Shown here piece by piece: positions 1 to 59,996 of a stretch of 64,000 nucleotides of DNA. A program made the position numbers and the translations under genes. Source of the stretch: Camelus ferus (taxonomy: Eukaryota); the NCBI RefSeq assembly GCF_009834535.1, contig NC_045696.1, forward strand, positions 50,346,001 through 50,410,000, read 5' to 3'. The notes under the pieces are model-generated. The model worked only from the letters and a program-made list of their open reading frames with translations, ran no database searches and was not told the DNA's origin. Position 1 is the stretch's first letter. The number at the start of each line of letters is the position of its first letter.

Positions 1-1134
1 CTGGGATTATCTGATTTTATGTGAATATTCTCTTGTCCTTGACAAGGCTATTTCACAACTCTGTAAACTGGAGAAACTAAGAGCAATGCAGATAATTCTT
101 CTCTATAGATACACAAATGAATTATATATAATAGATATAATTTATTTCTTCTCTATAGGAAAGATAATTTCAAACTATATTTTATTGCCATATAGATATT
201 AAATAGTTGTATAGTTTTACATATAACACATCAATTGCTGTATTATGTATATTTATATAAATATAAATACATCCATTGGTATTGCTGATTACCTAGATGT
301 GTGTCTGTTCTCCAGAGTTTCCTTTGAATCAGTTTTAACATCTTGCTGATTTCTTCATTAATTTAATTAAATTAAATCTTTGACATGTGTTCATTTTATA
401 TCTGCATGAGAGTGATGATTTTATCTTTCAAAAATTAAATTGCAACAGCTGTGAAATCACCTAATAGCTGAGAACTAACTGCCTAGAAAATGTACCAGAA
501 GCTGATACTCTTTAGACAGTATTTCTCAAAGTGTCCTCAACCTAACATAAGTTCTGCGAGTGTTAATAAATGTTCCCTGAAAAAAATGGTTTCATTTTAA
601 AATAATTTCAAGGAAGTTTTTTATTCACAGGCCCTCTCACAGGGATAGTATTTCATGTAAAACATTTTAGAAAATTCTATTCCAGATTATTGGATTTTGT
701 CACATTGTAAACTAACCAGGAGCCAAGACTCTCATAAAATTATAATGTTCATGTCAAAACAAAAACTCATGTTCTCCATTCCTTTGCCTCAATTTACCCA
801 AATTCAAAATGCTCTTGAATGTGTTTAAGTAAAACCTGCTTGCAGTCAGGAAGGCTGTAGGTATGTATGTGTATCTCAGAAGTGGGGCCATCTCTGATTT
901 TCACTTGATCTGATTTTCTTTTTTTTTTTTTAGAGATGCAAGAGATGGAGGTTGGACTTAGAGTGCCAAACCATTGATTTACAAGAGATCACCTGTGACG
1001 CAAAAACTCTTGTTTGTTATCCAAACTTCCACCATACCGGTAACAGAGGGCCTGTAGCTAGTAGGTAGATAACTCCTTGGTGACTACAAATCAGAGGAAG
1101 ATGAGGTATGCTGTCTTTCAGATCAAGTAAAATA

Positions 1135-1335
1135 ATAAACGTTATTGGATGATTACCATTTGCTAGGCTATGTGCTGAACATCGTGCATAACCTCATTTA
1201 TTATCTAAACTAGTACTATCTTTATCTTACTAAAAAAAAACCCAGATCGTGGCACCAGTGAATCACTTGTTCAAAGTCATGTGACATGTGAGTGGCTGAG
1301 CTGGGACTGAGGCCCACACAGATCAGGCATCATGA
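1135..1335 (-). mobile_element. MIR SINE, degenerate
   Basis: MIR-like segments (ttaccatttgctaggctatgtgctg...cacttgttcaaagtcatgtgacatgtgagtggctgagctgggact); recalled consensus similarity. Confidence 0.6.
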
Positions 1336-1339
1336 CACA

Positions 1340-1639
1340 CAGATCTCTAATCCCTTAGCTGATTGGGGCCAGATGTAGTTCGGATTTCACAATTTTTAAG
1401 ATTTTAGAGAAGTAAACAGTTCATTTACTGTATGTGACAACAGCCCTAGCGGGGTTGAGGAGTATCTCATGATCAAACACGTGAATGTATCTATAACACA
1501 ACATAAAAATATTCACACTGAGATAAAAGGAGGCTATAAATTGTTCAGGCCACGTTTTGTTGCCAAAGGAGTGGCAAAACATCTTCTGTTTCCAGAGATG
1601 TTTGGATTTTGGAACGGTTCCTGCAGGATTCTGGACCTG
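1340..1639. mobile_element. TcMar-Tigger-type non-autonomous DNA transposon (MER46C-like)
   Basis: Degenerate terminal inverted repeats (cagatctctaatccctta... / ...ggattctggacctg) and an internal gggccagatgtagttcggattt motif resembling MER46C; family named from memory. Confidence 0.5.
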
Positions 1640-3249
1640 ACTTCCCTTCAAGTGCCCAGCTCTGTTCACTAAATTTGGTATCTCTCACTTTCCTGGATAG
1701 TGCTGGCAGAATACTGCTGATTCTTACCCTTTTATTTTAGATTTTGCGAGCCACCAGGCTTCTAAAACCAGGTTCCTTTTTCAGTCATGGCAAAATGCAG
1801 TTCGCCTGGAAGGGGCGCTCCAGGCCTCTGGTTTCATTCCCCTACTCCTCACCACTTCCCCACACCCCACTGCAAACACATCAAGGCACATCAAAAAGGA
1901 CTTTTATTGAGCCACGATACTAAGGCTGTGGTCTCTTTTTCCCAGTATTTTCTTTCTTGGGATTCTGTCTTGTCTCTGCACACTCGGTACAATAGATGAC
2001 CAGGAGTGGCTCCTGCCTGTGTGCCTGCCTGGGAGAGGGTGGAATGTGGTGTTTAAATAGATCAGTGTCCCATAGCCCTTAAGGAGATGCAGACCCGCCC
2101 TCGCTTTTTCTTGGCAGGCTCTTGTACTGCCTTTCCTTGCCGTCAGTGTGGTATACTTGAGAAGACAGAGGAGCCTAGGAGAAAATGGGTAAAACCGGCC
2201 TTCACTAAACCAGCTTACCACACTGGAATTTGAGACAGAAGTTCACAGAAACAAGCGTATGTGTTCTGGTCTTATCCTTAATGCTTATTTCCCATATGAA
2301 CTTTAGAGGGAGGTGACCATAGTGAGACTGGTCAGCTAGGTCCCTGGACAAACTCTATCCCCTTCTCATTTAAACACAATTTCTGAATATATTTGTCTAG
2401 ATGTGGGCTTTCTTAGTTTCAGTCATATTCCAGGCCTGCTCCCTTCTGTTTACACCTTGAGTTTGGGTGCTTTTATATTGTCTCAGGCTCACATTTATAG
2501 GAATTTTTGGGATTATTTCTGAAGATAGCTCATTGCATCCATTTAAGTGTTATATTTCACCAGTTTAGCTCTCAAAGGGTGACTGTGCACCCAGACCTGA
2601 TATTCAAAACCCTGAACAACTAGAATGGCATAGGCACCAGCCAATCAGAATAGACAACTACAAACCACAATAAGTGCTGAGCTGATCCACTCTGGCTGAG
2701 CCTCAGCCTGGCTGGCCCATGTCTAAGAAACCAGCCTATGAGTTTAGTTCCTACCCTCTATTTGGTTCACTTGTAAACTATGTCTTCACGTAACAGCCTT
2801 CATCGAAGGGCACTCAGAAAATTTCTAAGGCAGTAAAACCATTCTAATACACGCTGCAGCGGGAAGAAACAAACAACAAACGAATGATAGTGCTAATTAT
2901 CCTTCCCGCCCACTCACGTATCCTAAGAAAACATCTCTATTCTACTGGAAGCTGACACCTTTATCTGAAAGGCAGTATGTGGCCTCTAAGAATCCGCTTT
3001 TACTTCTAGAAGGACAGCTCCCAAGAGACTGCATCAAGCCTTCAGCTCACAACGAATTGCTGCTTTCACCTTGTAAATTATTCACTCTACAAAGCTCCAA
3101 AAGTATACTTCCTAAACTTATTTCCTATCACCGTTACCGGCCCTCCCAAGTTGGTCCCCCAACAAGGGATGCAGAAGAAGCCCTGTGTCCTTCTCATCAA
3201 TAGGATGAGACTGAGTTTGGTTTAGAAGCAAAGAAAACCTCCATTTTTT

Positions 3250-3600
3250 AGACGGAGAATGGAGAGCCCTGAACTCCGGTTCTAGAGTCGAGGCTCTCCC
3301 CGTAGGCTGTGGGCGGGGCTGCTTTACCGGGATCTGGTGGGAGGGGTGGGGGGGAGGGGTGGGGGGGGCGGGGTGGGTGGAGCTCTTCGGGGGCGGGCGC
3401 AGGCGTGCTGCTCACGCTCCAGGTCGCCGCACCGCTGCGGACAGCGTCTCCGCCCACCACCCGCAGCAGCCATCTTGGGCTGAGCGTGGTCCACAACGCT
3501 GTGTACCTGGTCGCTGAGAGGCAGTGTCGGTGCAGCAGGTTTTGCATAAGGAGCTCTGGTCTGAAGCGTGGGGTGCGAGGCTTCTGCACGGGATACCCTA
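3250..3600. promoter_or_regulatory. Small CpG-island-like, promoter-like region overlapping the ERV 3' LTR and its flank
   Basis: About 26 CpG in 350 bp (hand count) in an otherwise CpG-poor window. It has GC boxes (GGGCGG), an NRF1-like GCGCAGGCG near 3397-3405 and a YY1-like GCCATCTT at 3469-3476. Confidence 0.6.
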
Positions 3601-3714
3601 TGAACAAGTGAAGCTAGACAAGCCAAGGATAAGGAACAAAAAGGTTAGACTTTATTTCATTACCTAGATTCTGTTTTTATTCCTCACGAATTGTAATGGG
3701 CTTTGCCCATGTCA
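3406..3714 (-). repeat. ERV 3' LTR
   Basis: Starts TGACATGGGCAAAGCCC right after the polypurine tract AGAGGAGGGG and ends ...GAGCAGCA. About 79% identical to the 5' LTR over an 80-bp block aligned by hand. Confidence 0.85.
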
Positions 3715-3726
3715 AACCCCTCCTCT

Positions 3727-4270
3727 GTCTTTTGTCCTGCTCCTCATTCTTGAGGGGTACTGGGAGGTCTGTCTCCCATAACTGATTTGTGCCGAGTCTG
3801 GGCTTCGTCATAACCCCGGGTGGAGGAGCAGAACTTCTCCCAGCTGCCTTTAGATGTGTTGGATTGTCACCAGGCCTCAGCCCTGACTGTTCTTATCCGT
3901 GAGTGACTGTCATCTGGAGTCTTATAGATATGCATAGGGGCAAGAGAATAATAGTTATTACGGAGCCCAGGAAAGGTAAAAACAAAGTGATTCTGGAAAG
4001 TCCAGTTTTACCTGCTCCAAATTTGTGCAGCCGAATTAAGCTGAATAGCTTCAAGTTGAGGACAGTGTCGCTGGCCACCATTGCTACATTGGCTGTTACT
4101 TTTCTATGATGACAGTATTACATATGGTTCCCCATCCAAGGTCACTAGCACCCGCGAGTGCAAGGATCCTGCAGTTATTAGTCCTTTCCTGTTTCAGGTT
4201 GAGTGTGATAAATCCAACAGTCAGTGAAGTTCCATCCTTCCTGAATATCCCTTGGCACACTTCTGTAGTT
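3727..4270 (-). pseudogene. env: ERV env remnant (mostly deleted; TM helix and cytoplasmic tail)
   Basis: ORF 3893-4081 contains LFLPFLGSVITIILL followed by IRLQM, resembling gamma-type TM anchors and the I(K/R)LQM tail motif. Only about 0.5 kb lies between the end of pol and the PPT. Confidence 0.6.
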
Positions 4271-7200
4271 TTTTGGAAGAGAAGTTTCAGGTCAGAGAGA
4301 GGTTCACACAGGTAGTCAAGGGGGTCCATTGCCCCAGGTTGTCTCTTGGAGATGGGGGCTTGGGGGTCCTATTCACTCAAGTGTGATGTGCCCACGGAGT
4401 GATCCCATGAAACTGGAGGCCAGAATAGGTAGTTAGGATCACCAAACGGTGTCATTTCACTTAGTTGGTTCTGTGGGCTGCCAGTTTTCCAAGTTTTTAG
4501 GTTCACCCAGTTTCCTGCCCAGAAGGGGTGCAGGGCCAGGTCAGTGCAAGCAGCACCTGGTTACCATATTCTGTGAGGGCTTTCATTGTTTCTCCTACCT
4601 GGAGGGCATACTTAAGTTGTTTCATTTCAAGGGGGTTAAGATGCCCCTTCTCTCGGGCTTGGGGAATGGGTCTACCATCCATGACTTCAAATGTACTTTA
4701 ATTTATCTGTTGGAGCTAACCACATTCAGAGCAGGGCAATTGGGAGTAACAATCCAATATTCTTGAGTCTCCTGGCATAGTTTGGCTAAGGTTTATTTTA
4801 AGGTCTGATTGGATCTCTTTACTTTCCCTGATGACTGGGGTCTCTAGGCTGAGTGCAAAGTCTACTTTATGCCCAGGACACTTTGTTATCCCTTTTGTCA
4901 CTTGAGACACAAATGCTGGGCCATTATCATTTTGTAGGGATCCTGGGAGCTCAAACCTGGGTATTATTTCTTTTAATAATACTTTAGCCCCTTCAGCTGC
5001 TATTTTCAGTTCTAGCAGAGAATGCTTTTACTCACCCTGAAAATGTGTCTAGTAGCATCAAGAGACACCTGAAATTGCCCAGTGCTCTCAGTATGATGGT
5101 GAAACCAATCTGCCAGCCTTGCCCAGGGTATGTCTTTTGGTCTGAATGGGCCTTATCTGGGAGCCTCTGTGGGGTCTGGTGTGTTGGGGTTGTTCACCGT
5201 GCAGATGGGGCATGTCTCAACTATCCCACTGATTATACTTTTCATTCCAGGAGTTACCATGACCTCAACTAACCAGTTACATAGGGCTTTCCCCCTATAG
5301 TGAGTTCTTTGATGTGCCTCTCTGATGGCTTGACAAGCTGCAGTTTGGGGAAAGAAGTATTGCCCACGTTCATCAGCTAGTCTCCCGTGTCCTCCTAGAT
5401 CTCTACTGAAGCCCTATTTCTGGGCTTTGTCTAATTTTTCCTTTGTGTAGACTGGGGAGTAATGGGATGGATCTGCCCTACTTAGGTATGAGGGGTAATT
5501 GCCAAGTTACTCATTCTAGGGCCTCCTTTTTTGGCCCCTACATTGAATCACTACCACTTTTTCTTTTTTTTTTGGAAGCTGCACTGCTTCTAGGAGTTTC
5601 TATGTTTAAGCCATGTTTCACCTGCTTATTCTCTGTAGTAAGCATATCCCTTTCTTTCCAAATAGCCTCCTGTGCATTAAGATGGCATATACATACTGGG
5701 ACTCTGTGTAAACATTTGAGATCCTCCCTATCCTGAGCTTTAAGGCTCAGGTTAGAGCTATCAGCTCAGCCTTCTGGGAAGGAGTCCCTGGGGGTGGGTT
5801 TTGTGTTTCTATGACTTGGGTCTGGGAAGTTACTGTAAAGCCTACCAGCGTTTTTCCCTGTCACAAAACTGATCCATCTGTGAAGCATTCCTCTTCGGTG
5901 TTTGGGAGAAGCTCACTTCCTTGGTCAGGGCAACTGGAATAAATCATGTCTATGGTTTCTGTACAGTTGTGCTCTAGGGGCCCTGTTTCTGTGGGTAGCA
6001 GGGTGGCAGGATTTAGCAAGTGACAGATTTTTATGATAACCACTGGGTTGTCTAAAAGCATTGCCTGGACTTGAGTCGACCTTCCAGGGATAGCCATTCT
6101 CTTCTGTTAGATCTGACTAAAGCCAGAACCTGGTGTGGAGTCCATATAGAGGTTATCTGACCAAAAGTTAACTTTTCAGCCTCTTTCAGCAGAGCTGTAG
6201 TAGTTGCTACTGCCCGTAGGCAAGGAGACCATCCCTTAGCAGTTTGATTTAATTGTTTAGAGAAATAAGCAATCACCAGAGTAAGGGATCCCACTTTTTA
6301 ACTAGTACTCTTAAGGGCAAGTTCCCTTCTCTCATGAATGAAAAGATCAAGGGGTTTAGCTAAATCTGGGAGGGCCGAGGCAGGGTCCTGAAATAACTGC
6401 TTTTTCAATTTTTGGAAGGCTCCTTCACATTCTGAATTCCATTCAAAAGGATCATCATCCTTTCCTCACAACTTTTCATATAGAGGGACCATAGTTAGCT
6501 ATTAGACCGTAGTTAGGGATCCAGATGTGGCAACCCAGCCACCCCCAGGAAACCTCTTAGCTGTCTTCTAGTTTTAGAAAGGGCGAGGCTGCAAATGCAA
6601 ATATATTGTTTCCTTTCCCGGTGAAGGCTTCTCTGACCTTCTGTGAGAATAAAGCCTAGGTAGGTCACCCTAGTTTGTGATATTTTAGCTTCTTCCTTGG
6701 GCACCTTGCATCCTTTATGGGCTAGGTGGTTCAGGGTGGTTACAGTATTTTTGACAGAGACCTCCTTAGTAAGGATGGTGATCAGAATATTGTCTACCTA
6801 CTGGAGGAAGGTTCCCTCCTCCAGGGAAATTTGAACCCTTGGGACAGGACTGTCCAGCAGTATTGTTTTTATTGTGTGTTTGGGTCCTGTCACTCAAAAA
6901 TTTCTTGTAACTCCGGGGCTAATGGAATACAGAAGAAGACATCTTTTAAATCTAATACAGATTACCCGGTCCTAGTAGACAGTAGAGTGCCAAGCAGGGT
7001 GCAGGGATTAGGAACTACTTGATGTATATCCCAGGTGACTTCACTGACTACCCTGAGGTCCTGTACCATCCAGTATTCCCTATTGGGTTTCTTTATGGAA
7101 AGAATGGGGATATTATAGGCTGGTTTATATGGTTTAATAAGACCCTGGTCAGTTAGGCATGTATAACAGGGGACAGGGAAGGTACTATTTTCTGCTGGTC

Positions 7201-7671
7201 TATGTATGTCCAGATTTTAGATGGACTATCACAGGACTGGCTCCTACACCTCATTCGACCCATCCCTAGATCCAGGGAGGTCAACTTGCTCTGTCCAGGG
7301 AGGTTTGTCCTCAGCTATTAACATTATGATCTTGTATCCTTTTTCTAAGGTGATTCCAATCTTCAATTTGTCTCGTATTAGGTGGATAGTAGCCCCCAGT
7401 TTATGTAAGATATCTCTTCCCAGCAGGGTATAGGGCATACAGGAATGTATAGGAAGGAATGGGTAAGATTATGTTCATCCAGTTTGCATTCTAATGACTC
7501 TTTGAATGCCCATTCTTGGGCCTTCCCTGATACCCCCATAATTTTACAACTCTTGTGACCTAGTTTGCCTGATCTGGTGTCCAGAACCGAGTAAGTGGCA
7601 CCATTGTTAACTAAGAATTTGACAGACTTTTCTCCTGTGTCCAGTGTCAGTGGGGGCTCCTCAGGGGTCAA
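4270..7671 (-). pseudogene. pol: ERV pro-pol pseudogene (protease, RT, RNase H, integrase) with many stops and frameshifts
   Basis: Protease FLVNNGATYSVL (decayed DTGA) and LLGRDIL. RT segments VTYLGFIL and RQLRGFLG. Connection region IAYFSKQL...GWSPCLRAVA and LNPATLLP. RNase H FTDGS. Pol C-terminus DYLCEPLSDLKLLFQK. Confidence 0.93.
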
Positions 7672-7689
7672 TTAGAGTGTCGGCTTAGG

Positions 7690-7900
7690 AGGGCCCCTGG
7701 CCTCATCATTCTTCATCTGTTTGGACCATCTGTCTTCAAGGGTAGTGAATGGGATCTGCCGTTTCCATCCCCCTTTGCAGGTGGCGAGGGCATTCTGTCT
7801 TCCAGTGTCCCTCTTATTTACATATGGCTCACAGATTGGCTCCTCGTTTCCTTGGCTTGCTATTCCTTGGTGGGGGTTGGAGGTCACTCACTGGAGTTGA
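7690..7900 (-). pseudogene. gag: ERV gag remnant (nucleocapsid CCHC zinc knuckle only)
   Basis: The minus strand at about 7843-7788 translates GANL*AICK*EGHWKTECP, a decayed CX2CX4HX4C knuckle. Confidence 0.8.
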
Positions 7901-7924
7901 GAGTCTCTGTGGGTGGTTAGTCCA

Positions 7925-7955
7925 GATTCCTGTGCTGACTGGAAGGTGACAGCCA
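7925..7955 (-). promoter_or_regulatory. Retroviral primer-binding site, degenerate (possibly tRNA-Ser)
   Basis: TGG begins 2 nt after the LTR terminal CA: TGGCTGTCAC-CTTCCA-GTCAGCACAGGAATC. This resembles a tRNA-Ser PBS (TGGCGTCACGAACAGGAT, recalled) with an internal insertion. Confidence 0.5.
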
Positions 7956-7957
7956 GT

Positions 7958-8220
7958 TGCTGCTCACGGCACTCCAGATAGAAGTGCTGGGTGCAGCATT
8001 TTTGCACATGGTACACTTGCAATCTTGAACTGATGTGTCGTGTACAGCCATTTTGCTCAAGGAACTCTGTTCTGAAGTGGCAAGTGCAAGGCTTCTGCAC
8101 GTGGTACCCTATGAGTAGGTGGAACTAGACTAAGCACAAAGGGAAAAAAGAGTTTAGACTTCATTTTATCCAGATTTTATTTTTATTCCCTGGGAATTGT
8201 TAATGGGCTTTGCCAGTGCC
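7958..8220 (-). repeat. ERV 5' LTR
   Basis: Homologous to 3406-3714 (shared tgctgctcacg, aggcttctgcacg, taccctatga, taatgggctttgcc) and followed by the PBS. Only about 3 CpG. Confidence 0.85.
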
Positions 8221-11200
8221 TTAATCTGCTCAGCAGCAAAGACTACCAGAAGCCACAAATACACATTTCATTTAAACAGCTTTGAACTTTCTGCATTGTT
8301 AACTACCAAGCTGTCCTTTGTACAGGACCTATAGTGTCTAACTTGGGGGTAGTTTCTACGCATATCAGTCTGTGGCACCTTTTGAGAAAGTATGACACTC
8401 CACTGTGGCTCTATGAGACAACCTAAATAGCAGGAAAAAGAACTAAGACATGGGAGATGTGGCAAAGAATAGTGAGTAATAGCAAGAGAACAGAACTGGG
8501 AGAGAGGCTCCTTGGCCAGGAAGATGCGCCCAGAATTTCCTACCAGAAAGAGTTATCTGGTTCATTACAGTATTCAGGCATGGGGTTGGCTTCCAAGTCA
8601 GAAGCACAAAATATTAACATTAGAACAAACATTAATATAACTTCCTACTCCACAGAGAGCACAAAATCTTGCGACTTCATCTCAGTTTCAGTTAAATCCA
8701 TTAGAGGAGTTTTCCAATGAATCTGCATAAAACCTACTTTATAAAAATTGGTTTTATGGTCTCCTTGATTGGGACATTTCCAATGCATAAAACATGGGAT
8801 ATATGCCATTGGAAAAAATATCCCATTTATATTTTTCTAGACTAGAGAGAATGGAGTAGATAGTATGAAAACATTTTCTCCTCTGCCATCCTCTTTCCTT
8901 CAGGTGCTCATTTTTGGCTCACATTATTAGGTTCAAGGACAGTTCTGTACAGAAATTTTAAAATTCTAACTGCTATCAATTCCAGATCCGTTAACCCAGC
9001 ACTATTGAAAGTGTGTTCACACACTGTTGCTGACTTTTCCTTATCAGTTTGTGATAGTATTACACAGCAATTGAGCATAGCATTTAGAATTTTTTCCAGC
9101 AGTTTGTCACAATATTTTTAAATCTCTTGAAGCTAATCATAAAAAGGGGAGGGGTTTATATTTTGAGTATTCATCAATTAAGAAGTGAGAATTTAAAAGA
9201 ACTGACTGGTTTTTAGCCCCAGATAGTTTAAGAAGCACTATCCTGACTTGTCTTCCAATAGCCTATGCCATGATCTTAATCCATAATTATGTTATGATTA
9301 ACTCTGACCTTCCAATTAGCAATGCCTAGAGTACAAAATCAGGTACAATGTCCAATAAAAATAATCTGTTACCTAATATCAGTATAACAGTTTTTACTGT
9401 GCTATTACTTATTAGATCATTTTAATTTTTACAATCATATGAGATGGGAAAGAAAATATTATCTACATTTTATATGTAATTCTACTGAACTCAGAGATAG
9501 TGTGTCCTGTCTGAGATAACAAGCTGGACAAGGCCAGGAGAGAGCAGAAAGGCTATTTACTGTGTTAGTGACCATGAAGAAATTGCTTAATCTCTCTGAG
9601 GTTTACTTTCCTTATCTGAAGCAAGCAGGTAGTAATACTGACCTTGCAAGTTGAAGGCTTGATGAAAAAAAAGAAATGAGAAAATACAGTAATCACTTTA
9701 AAAATTGTATTATTTGTCCTTGTTAAAGGTCTGTTCACTAGAACTACAGATAAAACAATGGTATTTCACAAAAGTAGGAGTTTTTCCAGGGCCTGGCACA
9801 TAATAAATTTTCAACAAATATTAGTTGGATGAATGACAATGAATGAGCACAAATTTTTCCTTCTATGCTGAATGCTTTCTAACGCACATAGAATTTACCC
9901 AAGAGGAACATAATCTCACTGATTCTGTTCCCTGTTACTGTATCACTAAGGATCTCTTGGATTGTGTCCAACTATACATAGATTTTCAGATACTCAGATT
10001 AGAGATCTTCAGACTCATTTTAATTAAAGAATTCCTTTCTTCAAACAAAGTTTTACACATAGTTCCATTGTTTAAAAAAAGGACAAACAAAACAAAATAT
10101 ATCTGGGTGATGGAAACAAGGTGGTCAGTCCCTGACTCACTCAGCCTCTCCTGGGCCTCACAGTAGCCTCTGAAACACCTTCTTAGATCCCTAGGACACA
10201 GTCTGAGAACCACTTTCTTTCTAATAGTGGATACTGTGAACACTTGGCAGTAGAAACAAGTTTAACCAAAGTGAACAGAACTGACAAGAATTTAGTGAGT
10301 TAGAAAAAATAAAAGGCAAGTGTGCATATAGACTCTTAGGAGCATAACTACCTCTCCTGAAAAATCTTCAAGAAGTGATGACCAAAAATCAATTATTACA
10401 TTTACCTTTGAAAGTTCAACCTGTAGTGAGTTACCCATAACCTTCCATTGTTCCACTCAGTTACATTTTTTTACATGCTTTGAGAGAAATGCAAAATTTC
10501 CTGTTGGGTACTGTGGTTTTAGTTGTTTGGTTGATTTTGTGATCATCCAGGGCTAGCTTTCCTCATGTTCAAAAACAGGAAAACACAAGAAACCAATGAA
10601 GAAGTTACAAACATCTTGATAATCTTTGGACCTTTCAAGGTACAGGGCAAGACATTGGAGCCCCCCAGGAAATTTTCCGTGGCTACAGTGGTTGGTACTG
10701 CTTCAGGAGCCAGGGCAAATGAAGACTGAAAAGGCAGAGGCTCAAGAGCCCATCGACAATTCAGAGTGGGTTCCTATTCCCCATGGGTCAACTGTCAAGA
10801 TGAGGAGTTTTAGCTTTAGCCTTGCTGAGTTCATAGAGAAGATGGAGCATGTAATTTGTTCAGCAAAGTGCCAAAAGGTTGAAAGAATCGCAGCTTTTTG
10901 TTCTGACCTTCCTGGTCCAGTTCTCTTGTCTACGTGGCAACCAGATGCCGCTTATGTGCTGGTAACTAGTATGGTTTGAACCGCTACACCAAGGTACTGT
11001 CATTTCACTTGTCCTCCTCCGTATATCCTCCTGCCTTTCTTTTTTTTTAATTGAGAAAGAGTTAATATATGAATTGGAAGATTTTAATCTCACTCTAGAC
11101 ACTTTTGGGGGGATCCTGGAGAGAATGGAGGAGGAGGGTAGAAGGACACAAAATACCGTAAAGAATCTGAGAGGACATCTCTTCAGTGTCTGAGGTAGCA

Positions 11201-22438: not shown

Positions 22439-23042
22439 CCCTGCCAAGGAGATCATCTTGCTAGTCAACACTGGCATCAGAGTTCCCTAATAACATGCTC
22501 TAGCAACTGTGGACAGGGAATGTTGCCTTCCATTCCAGTTCTACAATGATCAAGTCATTAGTCACTGCAGTTGCTCATTGACATTGCAGAGGATAATTCA
22601 GGATAGAGAAAAACAAGAAGGATTCTGTGCTTTAGATACAGGCCCTCCATAGTTAAGATGTATATCTAAGGAATAATTTCAGTAAGCCCCAGAATCTTGC
22701 ATCTTCCCATACATAAAAAAGCACTAAAATCATTAGCTTGAAATGTTTTTTCTTTGTAAAAAAAAAAAGCACTAAAATCATTAACTTGAAATGTTTATTC
22801 TTTGTAAAAAAAAAAAAGCTCTAAAATCGTTAACTTGGAATGTTTATTCTTTGTGATAAGCAGTAATCTTTTAATGTTCTATTACATGTGTTCCCCTCCC
22901 CACTCCCCACCCCCCCGGCAAAAAACTCCTATATATCCTGGCTCCTCATTTATCCCTTTAGAACAGTTTCTCAGAGCTCTCCGAGAGGCTGTCTCCTGGG
23001 CTCTAGTCCTCAGTAAGATCCCTGAATAAAACTTAACTCACA

Positions 23043-26000
23043 GAGAGGGATCAGGATGGTGGGTAGGAGTACGTGGAGCTCATCTTCCCCTACAGACTCA
23101 TCAAAAAATACATCTACATGTGGAACAATTCTCATGGAAAACTAACTAGAAACTGGCAGAAAAACTCCTATACAACCAAAGCCATAGAAAGATCTCCATG
23201 TAACCAGGTAGGATGGGAAAAAAGGCATTGGGTTGGGACCTGCACCCCTGGGAGGAATCTGTAAGGAAAAGAAGGTCCACATGGGGGGACCCTTACTCTG
23301 GGAGGTGAGCAGGTCAATCCACAAACTGGGTGACCCAGACCTGGGGTCCTGAGTAAGGGAGACAGACTCTCTTGCTGGAAAATCTACTGAGACAGATAGA
23401 ATGGGTGGAAAATAGCCTAGACTCTGCTCATGAGGAGTGTGCACATGTCACCTTGCTAACAGTCAGGGCAGAGAGAGCCTTGCACTGGCAGCTTCTGCTT
23501 CACTACATTTCCTAGCCTGAAGAAGCAGTCACTCTGGCCTTACTCACTCCACACCACAGCCAAGCACAGGATATGGCAAATATTTGATCTAACTATGCAA
23601 AGTCAGACCAGGGTCCTGGGATGTGATCTGGACAGAGCTGAAGAGGCCATTGTCAGTGCATGCAGGGCACAGTGGGTCTAAAGAATGCACAGCTGCTTAG
23701 TGCTGGCTGAATCTCAGGCAGACAGGCCCCAGGAGATGGCTCAATATAGCTACAAAGAGACAGCCCAGTAGGCCTAGGGTGTGATCCAGATGGAGCCCTG
23801 GAGCCCATTGTCAGAGAGCACACCTGGGTGGCACCACAAGAGGGTGCAGCAGCTAAGCACTGAATCTGGACTAGACAGCCTTGGGATATGTCTGTCACAG
23901 AGGCAGCCCAGATTTCAGGCAGCAGCACAGCCAACTCAGTTTGTGTAGCCACAATGACCCAACCCCCCAACCCAAGCCTACAGCACACCACCGCCTTGCA
24001 CTAAATCTGGGACAACACAGAAAGGGGCGTGACCTTGGGCTGATTCTGAGGAGAACCACAGATGCATACACATGTGGCACATAGGCCCTCTGTGACACCA
24101 TGGGCCTCACTTGCTTCAGCAATCGTCTCCTTTGGGGTTGGGCTCACATTCAAGGACAACAGAGCCTGATCTAACCTGACCCTTAGGGATTCTACTTCAA
24201 CAGCTGTAGAGCAGAACTCACCCCTGACAATGCAGTGACAGCTACAGAGCAAAGAGTAAGCAGTACTTCATATTCAACACAGGCTTTAAATACCCCAACA
24301 CCAACCACATCTGTTATCAAGAGGATAGCTACCAGCATGCTGTACTCAGTGTCTAAACCAAAACCAGCCCTTGCATCAAAAACACGTCACACACACAATC
24401 TATAAAAGGATGCTCCCCCATAAAAATAGTCCTTCAAAACCACAGTATATATCTGTTTCTCCTAAATTCATAGTCAGAGAAATTAAAGTAAGATGAAAGG
24501 GCACAGCAACTACACTCAATTAAAAGAACAAGAGAAATCCCCTGAAAGAACAATTAATGAAACAGACCTCATCAGTTTACTAGACCCCAGGTTCAAAAAA
24601 GAGGTAATAAAAATGCTGAAAGAATTAAGAAAGATTATCAACAGAATTACAGTCACATAATGAGGAACTAAAAACTGTAAAGATGAACCAGTCAAAATAG
24701 ACAATTCACTTGCTGAGCTAAACACCAATCTAGAAGTAATGAATAGCAAACTAAATGACACAGAAGAACAAATAAGTGATCTGGAATTCCAGGTAGATCA
24801 ATGGGAATCACCCAATCAGAACAGCAGACAGACAATTTAAAAAAAAAAAAAGGCAACATATGACATCTTTGGCATAATACAAAGCATGCCAACCTACACA
24901 TAATAGGGGTTTCAGAAGCAGAAGAGAGATAAGAGGATCAAAAATATATTTGAAAAATTATGGCTGAAAACTTCTCAATTCTAAAGAAGAAAACATATTC
25001 ATTCAGGCACAAGAAGCACAGAGGATTTCAAATAAGATAAATCCAAATGGACCCACGTCAAGATATATCATAATTAAAATAGTAAAAGTTAAATATAAAG
25101 AGAGGATTCTAAAGACAGCAAGAGAAAAACAGAGTCACTTACAAGGCAACCCCCATAAGGCTATCAGTTGGTTTCTTTGCAGAAACTTTGTAGGCTAGAA
25201 GGGAGTGGCAAAATGTATTCAAAGTCCTGAAAGGAAAAAATCTGCAACCTAGAGGATACTCTGCCCAGCAAGATTATCATTTAAAATAGAAAAAAAGAGA
25301 AAGATTTCTTCAGATAAGTGAAAATGAAAAGAATTCAGCCACACTAAACCTAGCCTAAAAGAAGTATTGAGGGGTCTTCTCTAAGTAGAAAAGAAGCGTG
25401 AATCTATAGGAAAGGTAAAATCACAATAAAAAAGACAAGTATACAAAAGGATTGAAGATCATTTATATAAGCCAGTACATAGATTTAAAAACAATCAAAA
25501 ATTGTAAAAGTGATTATACCTGCAATAACAGTAAACGACGGAATGAAGATGTAAACTAAGACATCAAAATCACAAGCTGGGGGAGAGGAGTATGAAAATG
25601 TGGATCCTTTAGAATGTGTTTGAACTTGAATGAATGTCAGTTTAAAGCAAGTAGATATAGTAATAGGTCAACATAATGCACTCCATGGTAACCATAAATT
25701 AAAAACATACAATAGATTCACAAAAAACAAAAAGAAACTCAAGCATACTACAAAAGAAAATAAACTACTAATAGGGAAAACAAAAAAGAAATTAACAAAG
25801 AACTACAAAAACAGCTGGAAAATGATTAAAATGGCAATAAGTAAATGCCTATCAATAATTTTTATTTGTTTGTTTGTTTTTTGGGTGGTGGTAGGAGGTA
25901 ATTAGGTTTATTTATTTATTTACTTTATTTATTGTGGAGATACCGGGAATTGAACCCAGGACCTCTTGCAAGCTAGCACTTGACCACTAGAGCTAAATCA

Positions 26001-27181: not shown

Positions 27182-27663
27182 TGTGAAGGAAAACCTGGCT
27201 GGGATAACAAGATAACTCACAAGTCTAAGAATGCTGTCTAACAAGATAACTCACAAGTCTAAGAATGTGGGCTAACAAGATAACTCACAAATCTAAGAAT
27301 CAGAATACTGATCTGAGTTCTGCTGGACTAACACGTAAATCTAAGTTAATTAGTGTTGGTTTGCTGTTCATGTTCTTTTTGCTAGCCAGCTGGATTTTCA
27401 AAGAGATATATCTGGCTTTTGAATGTTGGTTTGCTGCCTCCCTGCCTCCACTTTTGTGATACTGATGCTGCTAAAGCTGTTCCATGCCTATTGGCCGAAT
27501 ACCCCAAGCTTGTACTTTACCCTGTAAAACCTCATGCGCACGTCTTGGAGGTGCTCAGAGCTTCGGAACAGAAGCCCCTCTGAGCCTGCCGGCGTAATAC
27601 ATCTGAGTACTCCAACCCTCCAAGTGGTGCTTGTTTCTTGGTTGGCCTGTCGTTTCCGTAACA
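27182..27663 (+). mobile_element. ERV1-type solo LTR (B), relatively young
   Basis: TG...CA termini, 4-bp TSD ACAC (27178-27181 and 27664-27667), tandem repeats in U3, and several CpG retained in R/U5. Confidence 0.85.
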
Positions 27664-27989
27664 ACACAACCAGACACTTTGGCTTTTGCATGGGCAGCTG
27701 GACTTCAGCTCTTGGTCAGCTAAGCCATCTCTCCAGAGAACCAACTCATAGAAAGGTGCACCTCAACAAAATTAGGACTTTGTTCCTTTCAGCTCCCCCT
27801 TGCCTGGAAAAATAATGTGGTTAATCTGTTGTTGTTTTGGAGTATGTTATTTCTTTATTGACTGATAAAGAAACTTAGTCCTGTATGCTATTAGCTTGTT
27901 AAATTATTATAACTCCCACAGTGGACCTGTGTTAAAAAAAATATTGGCAAAAACAGTTTAAGTCTCTGAGCATAATTTGCCTCGAAACA

Positions 27990-35300: not shown

Positions 35301-37694
35301 CAAAATAGTTTGAGATAGTTGGAATGCTGTTTCCTTCTGCGACTGGAAATAGTTCCCTGGTGGGTACTGTTTTTAAAAAATAGAGTATATTGAGTTTACT
35401 TTTCTTTATAAAAGCAATTCATGATCATCAGAAAAAAATTTAAAAATACAGAAAAGGAAGGAGAGAAAAACCCCACAAAAGCCACCTGTCTGTAGTCCTA
35501 CTAGACTGGAAATAATTTTGGGAGTCAGTGGGATTTTGTGAAAAGGATATGGCTTTCAGGATCCAAAAGATCTGTATTTAATTCCGGTTCTAAACTGTGT
35601 GTCATCGGACAAATCTCTTCAATTTGAGCAGATGCTTACTAAATGGAAATTGAACAACAATAAAAACTCATCATTTTATGTATCAGAGTCACTAGAGAGG
35701 AGTACTCCCCTTTCTCTTTCATATATGGTTTAGGATCAGTGTTTAACTACCTATAATGTTCTTGCTTTGGCTTGTTTATTTTTCATTGTGAGGAGCTAAA
35801 CTCCACATCCCTGGCTTTCTCATTTCACACTTCCATTAAAGCCTTATTTTTGGCTGTTGCCATGACTCTTCTCCTTGTAGCTCTTGCCTTCCTTCTCCAG
35901 AAGCCCTTCTTTAACCCTTTCCAAGACACCTTCAGTCTTTACCTACCAACCTCAGCCATGCCAGTGATGTCTCATTCTCCATCTAGAAAGAGGGTGGGCA
36001 ACTATGAATTTGAGACAGCAAGCCCTTCTTCATAAAGCTAAATTTAAAGTGGCTACGATAAATCATATTGATGCTGTGTTTCAATGAACTACTGTAGTAG
36101 TATGTCCACATGCTAAAGTAATTCAGAATACAGTTGTTGGAAAGGCTATTGCCTCTTCATGTCCATTGTACCCTGCCTGACTGCTATGTAATTTGGAAGA
36201 GCACCAAACTACATGAAAGTCCGGCCACTCCTCCAAGTCCCTCTCATGCGGTGTGCAGGGCAGCCCCCAGGAGTCCTAGGTGGGAGAAGGCTGAGGGTCT
36301 GCATGGAACCTTTCTCCTTTACCCGGGCTGCTGAGAGAGGCTTATGAAGCTCAGGGGTAAAATTCAGAAATCTCAAGCAGCATTGAAACCTTAATGCATC
36401 TCAAAACCCAAAGCAAAGCAAAACAAAAATGTACCTTACTTATAAATAACTTTCCTGGAATGAGATGGAGTAATACTTCATGAAAAGCCATGGATTGTGA
36501 AAATTAGTTTGGTGGGTGGAGTTCAACATTTTTTAAAATGAAAAGATAGAATAAAATAGGAAATACCAAAATATAAAGTAGATGATACCGGTAGATAAAA
36601 AAGGTGCATCTGTGTCTATGTGTGTGCCTTTGTAAGGCAAATCAGTTTTTCCACGGTCACAATTAGAAACCCTTGAAATAGGAACCTGGCTCAGATGAGA
36701 GTAGGCTGATACTAGAGACCCGAAGAGGGCAGGTTGGGAAGAGTAGGGTAGGGAAAGTAGGGTAGGAGAAAGGAGGGTGCTTTCCAATAATCAAATTAGG
36801 TACCAAAAATCAGACTGGTCCTTCACAATTCTGCCAAACTTACACACACACGCCACACCATACCAGACCCTACTTCTGTCCCTAACATCACTCTCCTGAA
36901 CACCTAAAAACTCCCCAGTTGCTGATTCTGGTATAAATGCCATAGACTCCAGCCTTGATCTGAAGGAATCTTCTTGGAAAATGTCTACCCAGGTGGATGT
37001 CCTCAAGAAGATCAAAAACACCCAGAGACTTCTGCTTCTTTCCTGGGCTGGGTGTGAACAGTTAATAAAGGAGTGATCCACCCCCCTGTTCTTTACAACA
37101 CTTCCTATTTTAGAGTCTCTGCTTTGGAATATTTGGATGAATGACATCATACACAGAGCCCCCATCTAACCCATTAGGTTAGATGATAAGCAGTTATAAT
37201 TCAAACATGAGAATACCTGAGGTTTTGTGTTCTTTGTCACTTATATCACTTGTTCTACAAATGCTGCAACAGTCTTTCTTAGAAACTAGTGTCCAGTTAA
37301 ACCAGGTCCATTGCTCAGTTCTCTCTAAACTGTGGAGTGTGCGTGTGCAGCTTCTTCACCCAGTGTTTGATCTCAGACAGTACCTTAGAAAGGCTGCAGT
37401 CCAGGCGGCTGAGCTAAAGCCACAAGCATCTCTTCTAACTCTCCTCATTTGGGTACGCTTAACCATTTTCTCACCCTTCTTGCCAATGTGCAAACCCCAC
37501 ATAGAGAGTGTGAGAATGAGGTTGAGAGAGTTAGGGAGAGAGAAACTGAAAGGCACTCAGCCATGGGGATGCTGCCGCCTTGCCGGAGCAGCGTGGGTGG
37601 GAGGCTGCAGCGACTCTCTGGGTCCCCTCAGCTGCTGGGGCTGCCCAGCCCCTCCCCAGCCCCCTTCTTCCTTTGGGGCTAAAGAGGCAGCCTC

Positions 37695-37841
37695 CTTTGA
37701 GCTCCTCTCGTGCCATTGCTTTGAGTTCTTTGAGCATCTCTCAAAGAACTTCTTCGAGCTTCTTACTGGTTTCTTCTTTCCTGCCATTGTTTTGAGTTCT
37801 TTGAGGTTTGAGTTCTTTGAGCTCCTCTCCTGCCATTGCTT
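37695..37841. repeat. Local patchwork duplication with an 11-bp perfect inverted repeat
   Basis: 27-bp direct repeat ctttgagctcctctc(g/c)tgccattgctt at 37695-37721 and 37815-37841. Inverted repeat agttctttgag/ctcaaagaact at 37724-37750. Confidence 0.9.
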
Positions 37842-38024
37842 CCCCCATCCCCTACCCCAGGACACCTTCCTGTAAGCACTAGGCTGCTGTTCAGGGCACC
37901 TCACCTGGGAAACCTCCTTCAGTGACCTTTGCTTTTTCTGTTACCCTCTGAAAGTTTAATTTCTACAACTAGTTACCTTAATTTTGGTCTTCCTTGTAGC
38001 ATATGTAACTGTTAGTGCTCCAAT

Positions 38025-47804: not shown

Positions 47805-47959
47805 TTTTTTTAATTATTTCAAGTTTAAAAAAAAATTGGGGGCGAGTAATTAGATTGATTGATTGATTGATTGATTGATTAATGGAGGTACTGGGGATTT
47901 AACCCAGGAACTCCTGCATGCTAAGCATGCACTCTACCACTAAGCTATACCTGCTTCCT
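47805..47959 (-). mobile_element. tRNA-derived SINE (camelid Vic-1-like) inside the L1
   Basis: ggaggtactggggatttaacccagg...ctctaccactaagctatacc. TSD GGTTGTTT at 47797-47804 and 47960-47967. Confidence 0.85.
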
Positions 47960-59848: not shown

Positions 59849-59996
59849 TTTTTAATTTTTATTTTTTTTATTTTATTTTTGAGAGAGGGAGATAATTGGG
59901 TTTATTTATTAATTTTAATAGAGGTACTGGAGATAGAACCCAGGACTTCTGCATTGCTAAGTACATACTCTGCCACTGAGCTATATCCTCCCCACC
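59849..59996 (-). mobile_element. tRNA-derived SINE (camelid Vic-1-like)
   Basis: gaggtactggagatagaacccaggac...ctctgccactgagctatatcc. Perfect 17-bp TSD AAGTCTCAACATTTCTT at 59832-59848 and 59997-60013. Confidence 0.9.

Follow-up and report, generated by a model that had tools for sequence, protein, structure and literature searches.

A CpG-island 3' LTR of a decayed ERV1-type provirus in the camel genome, a plausible leftward promoter

We analyzed a 64-kb stretch of the Camelus ferus genome (hereafter, the window). Near its left end, two direct long terminal repeats (LTRs), of which the right one is truncated, bracket a viral interior. The features of this locus are as follows.

1885–2174, minus strand: candidate last exon, a prediction (acceptor 2174, AATAAA 1908).
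2755–2853, minus strand: candidate internal exon of 99 bp, a prediction from rough splice-site scores.
2781–3131, no strand: host flank with CpG excess (observed/expected ratio, o/e, 0.64 at GC 0.42); a weaker excess extends to about 1000.
3132–3714, minus strand: 3' LTR in its revised full extent (about 583 bp, GC 0.57, 29 CpG, CpG o/e 0.62), the left LTR.
3132–3329, minus strand: R-U5-like part, so labelled from its position, lost from the right copy; candidate splice donor at 3138.
3330–3714, minus strand: putative U3-like part with degenerate internal repeats.
3476–3469, 3405–3397, 3396–3391 and 3371–3366, minus strand, within the U3-like part: YY1-type motif, NRF1-like motif and two GC boxes, respectively.
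3182–3733, no strand: CpG island (Takai-Jones); all 27 of its CpGs lie within the revised LTR.
3715–3740, minus strand: polypurine-tract-like run, read by eye, two bases ahead of the LTR start.
4099–7830, minus strand: broken gag end, protease, reverse transcriptase (RT)/RNase H and integrase of a gamma-type endogenous retrovirus (Pfam and PDB matches).
7950–8221, minus strand: 5' LTR, truncated and decayed (3 CpG, o/e 0.22), recognized by homology to the left copy; the right LTR.

The order gag-pro-pol with a gamma-type RT was found at 4099–7830, with the zinc knuckle of gag (about 7822–7787, minus strand) as a weak match (zf-CCHC, E 0.05). Pfam searches with the minus-strand pol pieces identified RVP (7e-5), RT_RNaseH (1.5e-6) and Integrase_H2C2 (5e-6). 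Further, the RT piece matched RT p80 / Gag-Pol in the PDB (3e-13), entries that we take to be murine leukaemia virus enzymes. The right LTR meets the end of gag about 135 bp ahead of the knuckle, indicating that the primer-binding site and most of gag are gone; a primer-binding site was absent after the 5' LTR and was judged by eye to be deleted. For env, none of the three frames of 3714–4120 had a Pfam match, and only about 400 bp are present there. At the revised LTR ends, three of five bases of a target-site duplication agreed. We found no related LTR or provirus DNA in viral, metagenome or prokaryote collections. Judged by its sequence organization, the element is a decayed ERV1-type (class I, gamma-type) provirus on the minus strand.

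The left and right repeats were 76% identical over 188 columns (E 6e-28), and with the pol pieces between them this homology bears out the view of the first-pass annotation that they are the LTRs of one provirus type. The similarity ends at 3406/7958; its distal part (3406–3483 versus 7958–8033) scored above all 1000 of 1000 shuffles. There was no third copy of the repeat in the 64-kb window. Divergence of the LTR core (K2P 0.197, standard error 0.04) corresponds to 39–66 million years at 2.5–1.5e-9 per year, and to about 20 million years at the rate used in PMC8605555 (cited in part). Within the right LTR, 7925–8110 consists of degenerate units of 42, 51, 42 and 54 bp (self-match of 68% over 69 bp). 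Because all of these lengths are multiples of three and an acceptor-like site is present on the minus strand in both copies (3597 and 8108), we considered whether the two repeats could be host exons, duplicated within a small protein-coding gene and separated by an intron that contains the viral piece. We found no named protein relative, the three homologues being unnamed single-member clusters in unrelated contexts, and the purine tract and LTR-type ends suit an LTR. This alternative is thus largely refuted and, in our judgement, extremely improbable.

The start of the left LTR (3714) was placed by homology with the right copy and by the purine tract. To the other side, one translated frame of the left copy gave six matches. 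Three of these, P0003, P0004 and P0006, are translated homologous DNA (46, 45 and 49% identity), known as unnamed single-member clusters from ENA or Logan; P0001, P0002 and P0005 are long repetitive proteins and were set aside as chance matches. P0004 and P0006 also matched 3250–3404, with scores that were reached by 0 of 150 shuffles each, whereas that of P0003 was reached by 31 of 150. The P0006 match continued to 3137 (0/150 shuffles) and ended there at a GTAAC-type terminus; beyond 3137 there was no match (60/60 shuffles reached the score). These matches suggest that the left LTR spans approximately 3714–3132, where the end at 3132 is set by one outside copy, P0006, known only as protein. 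The segment 3250–3405, which the first-pass annotation had called non-viral flank, is therefore better read as LTR, matched by two of the three outside homologues, and belongs to the half that the right LTR lost. Two other placements were rejected: homology of 3250–3403 with the DNA past the right copy (480/1000 shuffles), and a 1.4-kb LTR ending at 2282, for which the target-site duplication was only one match of 4–5 bases, at chance level.

A similar terminus is found in a younger solo LTR elsewhere in the window (27182–27663, 482 bp), which has TG...CA ends, a perfect 4-bp duplication and short tandem repeats near its start. Of other repeats in the window, a 48-bp A-rich unit occurs three times in tandem at 22715–22866, at the end of an L1 piece. 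The sole Rfam match was a tRNA-like sequence at 47883–47954, with related short repeats at 25925–25966 and 59909–59950; these are, we assume, probably camelid tRNA-derived SINEs. Rfam gave no match at the left-LTR locus.

The outside copies shared 17 and 18 of 31 codons with the right LTR and 14 and 14 of 31 with the left. Being no nearer to the left than to the right LTR, they appear to be other family members, not orthologues. Further, about 40 bp shared by the left copy and the outside copies are missing from the right copy. The tail of P0003 (residues ~105–135) presumably resembles a translated ruminant Bov-A SINE, which would place the LTR family in ruminants too and favor the older age.

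Against the o/e of the whole window (0.125), that of pol was 0.11, that of the right LTR 0.22 and that of the left LTR 0.62. Our recount agreed with the earlier counts of 16 versus 3 CpGs between the LTRs (16 in 3405–3714, 310 bp; 3 in 7958–8220, 263 bp) and of about 11 more in 3250–3405 (10 in 3250–3404 and one spanning 3404/3405), and the GC boxes reported in the latter segment were located at 3311, 3366 and 3391. The comparison of 309 with 263 bp masks that the right copy provides an aligned partner for only 10 of the 16 left CpGs; in homologous parts, 17 of 311 left and 3 of 264 right positions were CpG (Fisher p 0.005). The left LTR had also been described as the only CpG island in 64 kb. 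This holds under the Takai-Jones definition (at least 500 bp, GC >0.55, o/e >0.65), which 3182–3733 satisfies, whereas a looser 200-bp definition adds 27465–27695; the latter island, borderline with 9 CpG and o/e 0.38, is in the solo LTR.

These counts could differ between the LTRs if the two were not an insertion pair, that is, if the left LTR were younger or of a different subfamily, through conversion replacement or a second insertion, and had had less time for CpG decay. The right copy indeed shares fewer codons with the left (15 of 31) than with the outside copies, the ~40 bp are missing from it, and the target-site duplication is imperfect. However, the left copy looks old, with a worn terminus, worn core signals and many private changes, and the solo LTR, which is clearly younger, has already fallen to o/e 0.38. 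Further, a young LTR would leave no CpG excess in the flanking host DNA, so the excess described below would go unexplained. We therefore consider a non-paired origin very unlikely.

The first-pass annotation left it open whether the island had been kept or gained. Opposite the 10 aligned left CpGs, the right copy has TpG/CpA at five, CpG at two and another dinucleotide at three. The outside copies, in which matches are biased toward GC-rich, stop-free copies, were GC-rich in the LTR body, distal part included, and had kept arginine in 9 of 17 cells opposite CpG codons (6 decay-type, 2 other). In the last unit of the right copy, all five private changes were from G/C to A/T. Since the distal part is GC-rich in the outside copies, most of the left/right difference appears to be decay of the right copy. 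We had polarized the changes by the internal repeats, which gave 8–9 versus 1–2 toward G/C, but GC gain as the main cause was rejected because the outside copies share the GC-rich state. Across 52 informative codon columns, the left copy had 14 private changes: 4 to G/C, 1 to A/T, 1 neutral and 8 unclassed. Thus, as far as these alignments go, the LTR family was rich in CpG, decay affected the right copy, and most CpGs of the left copy have been retained; of the two earlier options retention explains more, and the gain is small and non-significant. The arginines kept in the outside copies suggest that CpG retention may be commoner in this LTR family than assumed.

The small gain bears on another possibility, namely that GC-biased gene conversion at a recombination hotspot built most of the island after insertion, with or without transcription. 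In the distal part, G/C-for-A/T differences were 15 versus 1 (10 versus 1 outside CpGs, p 0.012), private changes in the left copy favor G/C by 4 to 1, and the CpG at 3452 is opposite a non-arginine codon in all three outside copies. Such conversion has been reported at unmethylated regions in many mammals (PMC11161765, in part). In contrast, the 165-column core was unbiased (14 versus 12), the 4 to 1 lean was not significant (p 0.38) with 8 of 14 changes unclassable, and the GC-rich outside copies undercut the internal-repeat test. Conversion as the main builder of the island is thus distinctly unlikely.

We then compared the host DNA on the two sides of the provirus. Immediately left of the LTR, 2781–3131 (351 bp) contained 9 CpG versus 1.5 expected, a value that 0 of 1107 background windows reached. 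Over 2 kb (1132–3131) there were 27 CpG, reached by 0 of 215 background windows, of which the maximum was 18. Outside the right LTR, 5 CpG versus 6.7 expected were found, which is the background level. The excess was patchy: 2000–2780 was at background (o/e 0.13) and separated the island from a second CpG-rich patch at 991–1999 (15 CpG versus 4.7 expected), which by its appearance we take to overlie old copies of MIR and DNA transposons. The excess spans about 2 kb to the left and about 0.5 kb to the right of the LTR, an asymmetry that would fit leftward transcription. CpG-rich host DNA left of the LTR probably means that the locus has long been unmethylated in the germline. Together with CpG retention, this excess supports the earlier proposal of long germline non-methylation of the 3' LTR and suggests a duration of tens of millions of years.

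Non-methylation could also be passive, if an older host promoter or enhancer to the left (about 1000–3100 or past the window) sheltered the LTR and the LTR itself drove nothing. The host CpG excess out to about 1000 and an LTR free of any sign of constraint would agree with this. Further, in mouse, for three full-length ERVs near start sites, the near 3' LTR was unmethylated and the far 5' LTR methylated (PMC3491417, in part). However, CpG and GC peak inside the LTR, 2000–2780 is at background, and the AT-rich host flank contains no separate island. We consider shelter of this kind rather unlikely, and return to the left LTR as an element that would itself be active.

The YY1-type and NRF1-like identities of the motifs in the left LTR are our assumption; the YY1-type stretch lies within four codons that were invariant in all four sequences. 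Around 3328 we saw no canonical TATA box, and 3132–3329 had no AATAAA or ATTAAA. Further, neither AATAAA nor ATTAAA was present on the minus strand from 3404 to 1908, so a transcript could leave the LTR. Because the expected position of a TATA box is empty and a poly(A) signal is absent, the left LTR resembles an island promoter of the TATA-less kind, with an RNA that would be able to enter host DNA, and it is a plausible leftward-firing promoter. Candidate splice donors were at 3328, 3138, 2918 and 2755 and candidate acceptors at 2853 and 2174 (rough splice-site scores). Among the window acceptors of comparable strength, 26 of 66 were also followed by a downstream AATAAA, and the exon model is accordingly weak.

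RNA-seq runs X16 and X17 (reproductive system, one study) contained 0.56 and 0.32 of the sequence words of 1750–3760, possibly as DNA. The expected word share was 0.20–0.31 for the candidate spliced forms and 0.70 for the unspliced form. Four of the 24 listed runs were recorded as RNA. We disregarded as evidence runs X19 and X20, with a share of 0.06, and two guessed-RNA runs, X15 (0.63) and X18 (0.29).

The first-pass annotation had further proposed that the left LTR was co-opted as a promoter firing leftward. Leftward is the native direction of the LTR, but the left copy was no better conserved than its relatives: private changes were 14 of 52 codon columns in the left copy and 8 of 28 in the right, and the left copy shared 14, 14 and 15 of 31 codons with its relatives, compared with 15–18 of 31 among the other copies. 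Host co-option is thus unproven. Near start sites, composition can be shaped by processes other than selection (PMC13712754 and PMC11161765, both in part).

No host gene dependent on the LTR was found in the window, which includes 3.1 kb to the left (downstream) of the LTR. To the right of 8300, 112 open reading frames gave only L1 domains and two sub-cut-off matches in Pfam. We also noted a GC-rich, internally repeated stretch at 37540–37870 with open frames of 124–230 codons nearby; it had no match in Pfam or, for one frame, in the PDB. At the locus itself, there was no protein homologue for 3251–3613 or 1907–2242, none among longer proteins for 3327–3644 and none in the Atlas for 7891–8115 (best 0.82), and three exact look-ups gave no hit (0/3).

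One frame bears on a bolder reading, in which the LTR family itself resists methylation through a YY1/NRF1/Sp1-type core and seeds CpG-island promoters in hoofed mammals, and this copy serves a newborn germline gene as its promoter. An ATG at 3473 in strong context, inside the YY1-type motif, would be joined through the donor at 3328 and the acceptor at 2174 into a frame of 138 codons that ends at the poly(A) signal. This was the longest of 153 combinations, and 2 of 66 comparable acceptors gave an equally long open frame; the frame had no homologue. The same reading would have the camel copy start as a viral promoter driven by a TATA box and become a TATA-less island promoter. Taken jointly, these proposals are highly doubtful.

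Our preferred reading is more restricted. From the observed anatomy, CpG retention and host-flank CpG excess, we infer the methylation state, promoter activity, direction and transcript in the following history, which we give about an even chance of being correct. A gamma-type (ERV1) provirus, whose LTRs were CpG-rich from the outset, would have inserted about 20–65 million years ago. Later, the 5' LTR would have lost its distal half to a deletion that also took the primer site and most of gag; what remained would have been methylated and then have decayed. The 3' LTR (3714–3132) would have escaped germline methylation throughout, and the likeliest reason is continued recruitment of transcription machinery by its own YY1-, NRF1- and Sp1-type sites. 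It would now be a TATA-less CpG-island promoter that fires left into host DNA, and its RNA would probably be non-coding.

It is not settled how new CpG islands originate, and they seldom contain old LTRs (PMC12582260, in part). According to the same source, young LTRs are able to satisfy island criteria, and LTRs contribute only 0.2% of the bases of human start-site islands, against 1.3% when all islands are counted; it would thus be uncommon for an old LTR to form a whole island. It has been proposed that elements next to island promoters are protected (PMC2777200, in part). Our literature search, which covered texts without supplements, found no study of this locus. A provirus with diverging ends offers a built-in control: both ends began as one sequence at one time, and they lie 4.5 kb from each other. 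A transcript start mapped to within the left LTR would make this a clean, dated case of an LTR-born island; as a single locus, it leaves the general picture unchanged.

The closest likeness is with mouse ETn/MusD and IAP elements, in which one provirus has opposite methylation at its two LTRs and the 3' LTR is unmethylated (Rebollo et al., 2012; PMC3491417, in part). In those elements the LTRs are 100% identical and the cause is the promoter of a neighboring gene. In contrast, at the camel locus the asymmetry is in the sequence itself (about 17% divergence), the island is the LTR, and no neighboring promoter was identified. A second likeness is with LTR-initiated transcription units in oocytes (PMC6102241, in part) and the MER21C-derived first exon of GPR1-AS (PMC12129452, in part), in which an old LTR starts RNA into host DNA, some such units using a splice donor within the LTR. 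In these cases transcripts have been mapped, methylation or imprinting is affected, and the promoters are stage-specific, whereas the camel LTR is a CpG island and its transcript start is a prediction.
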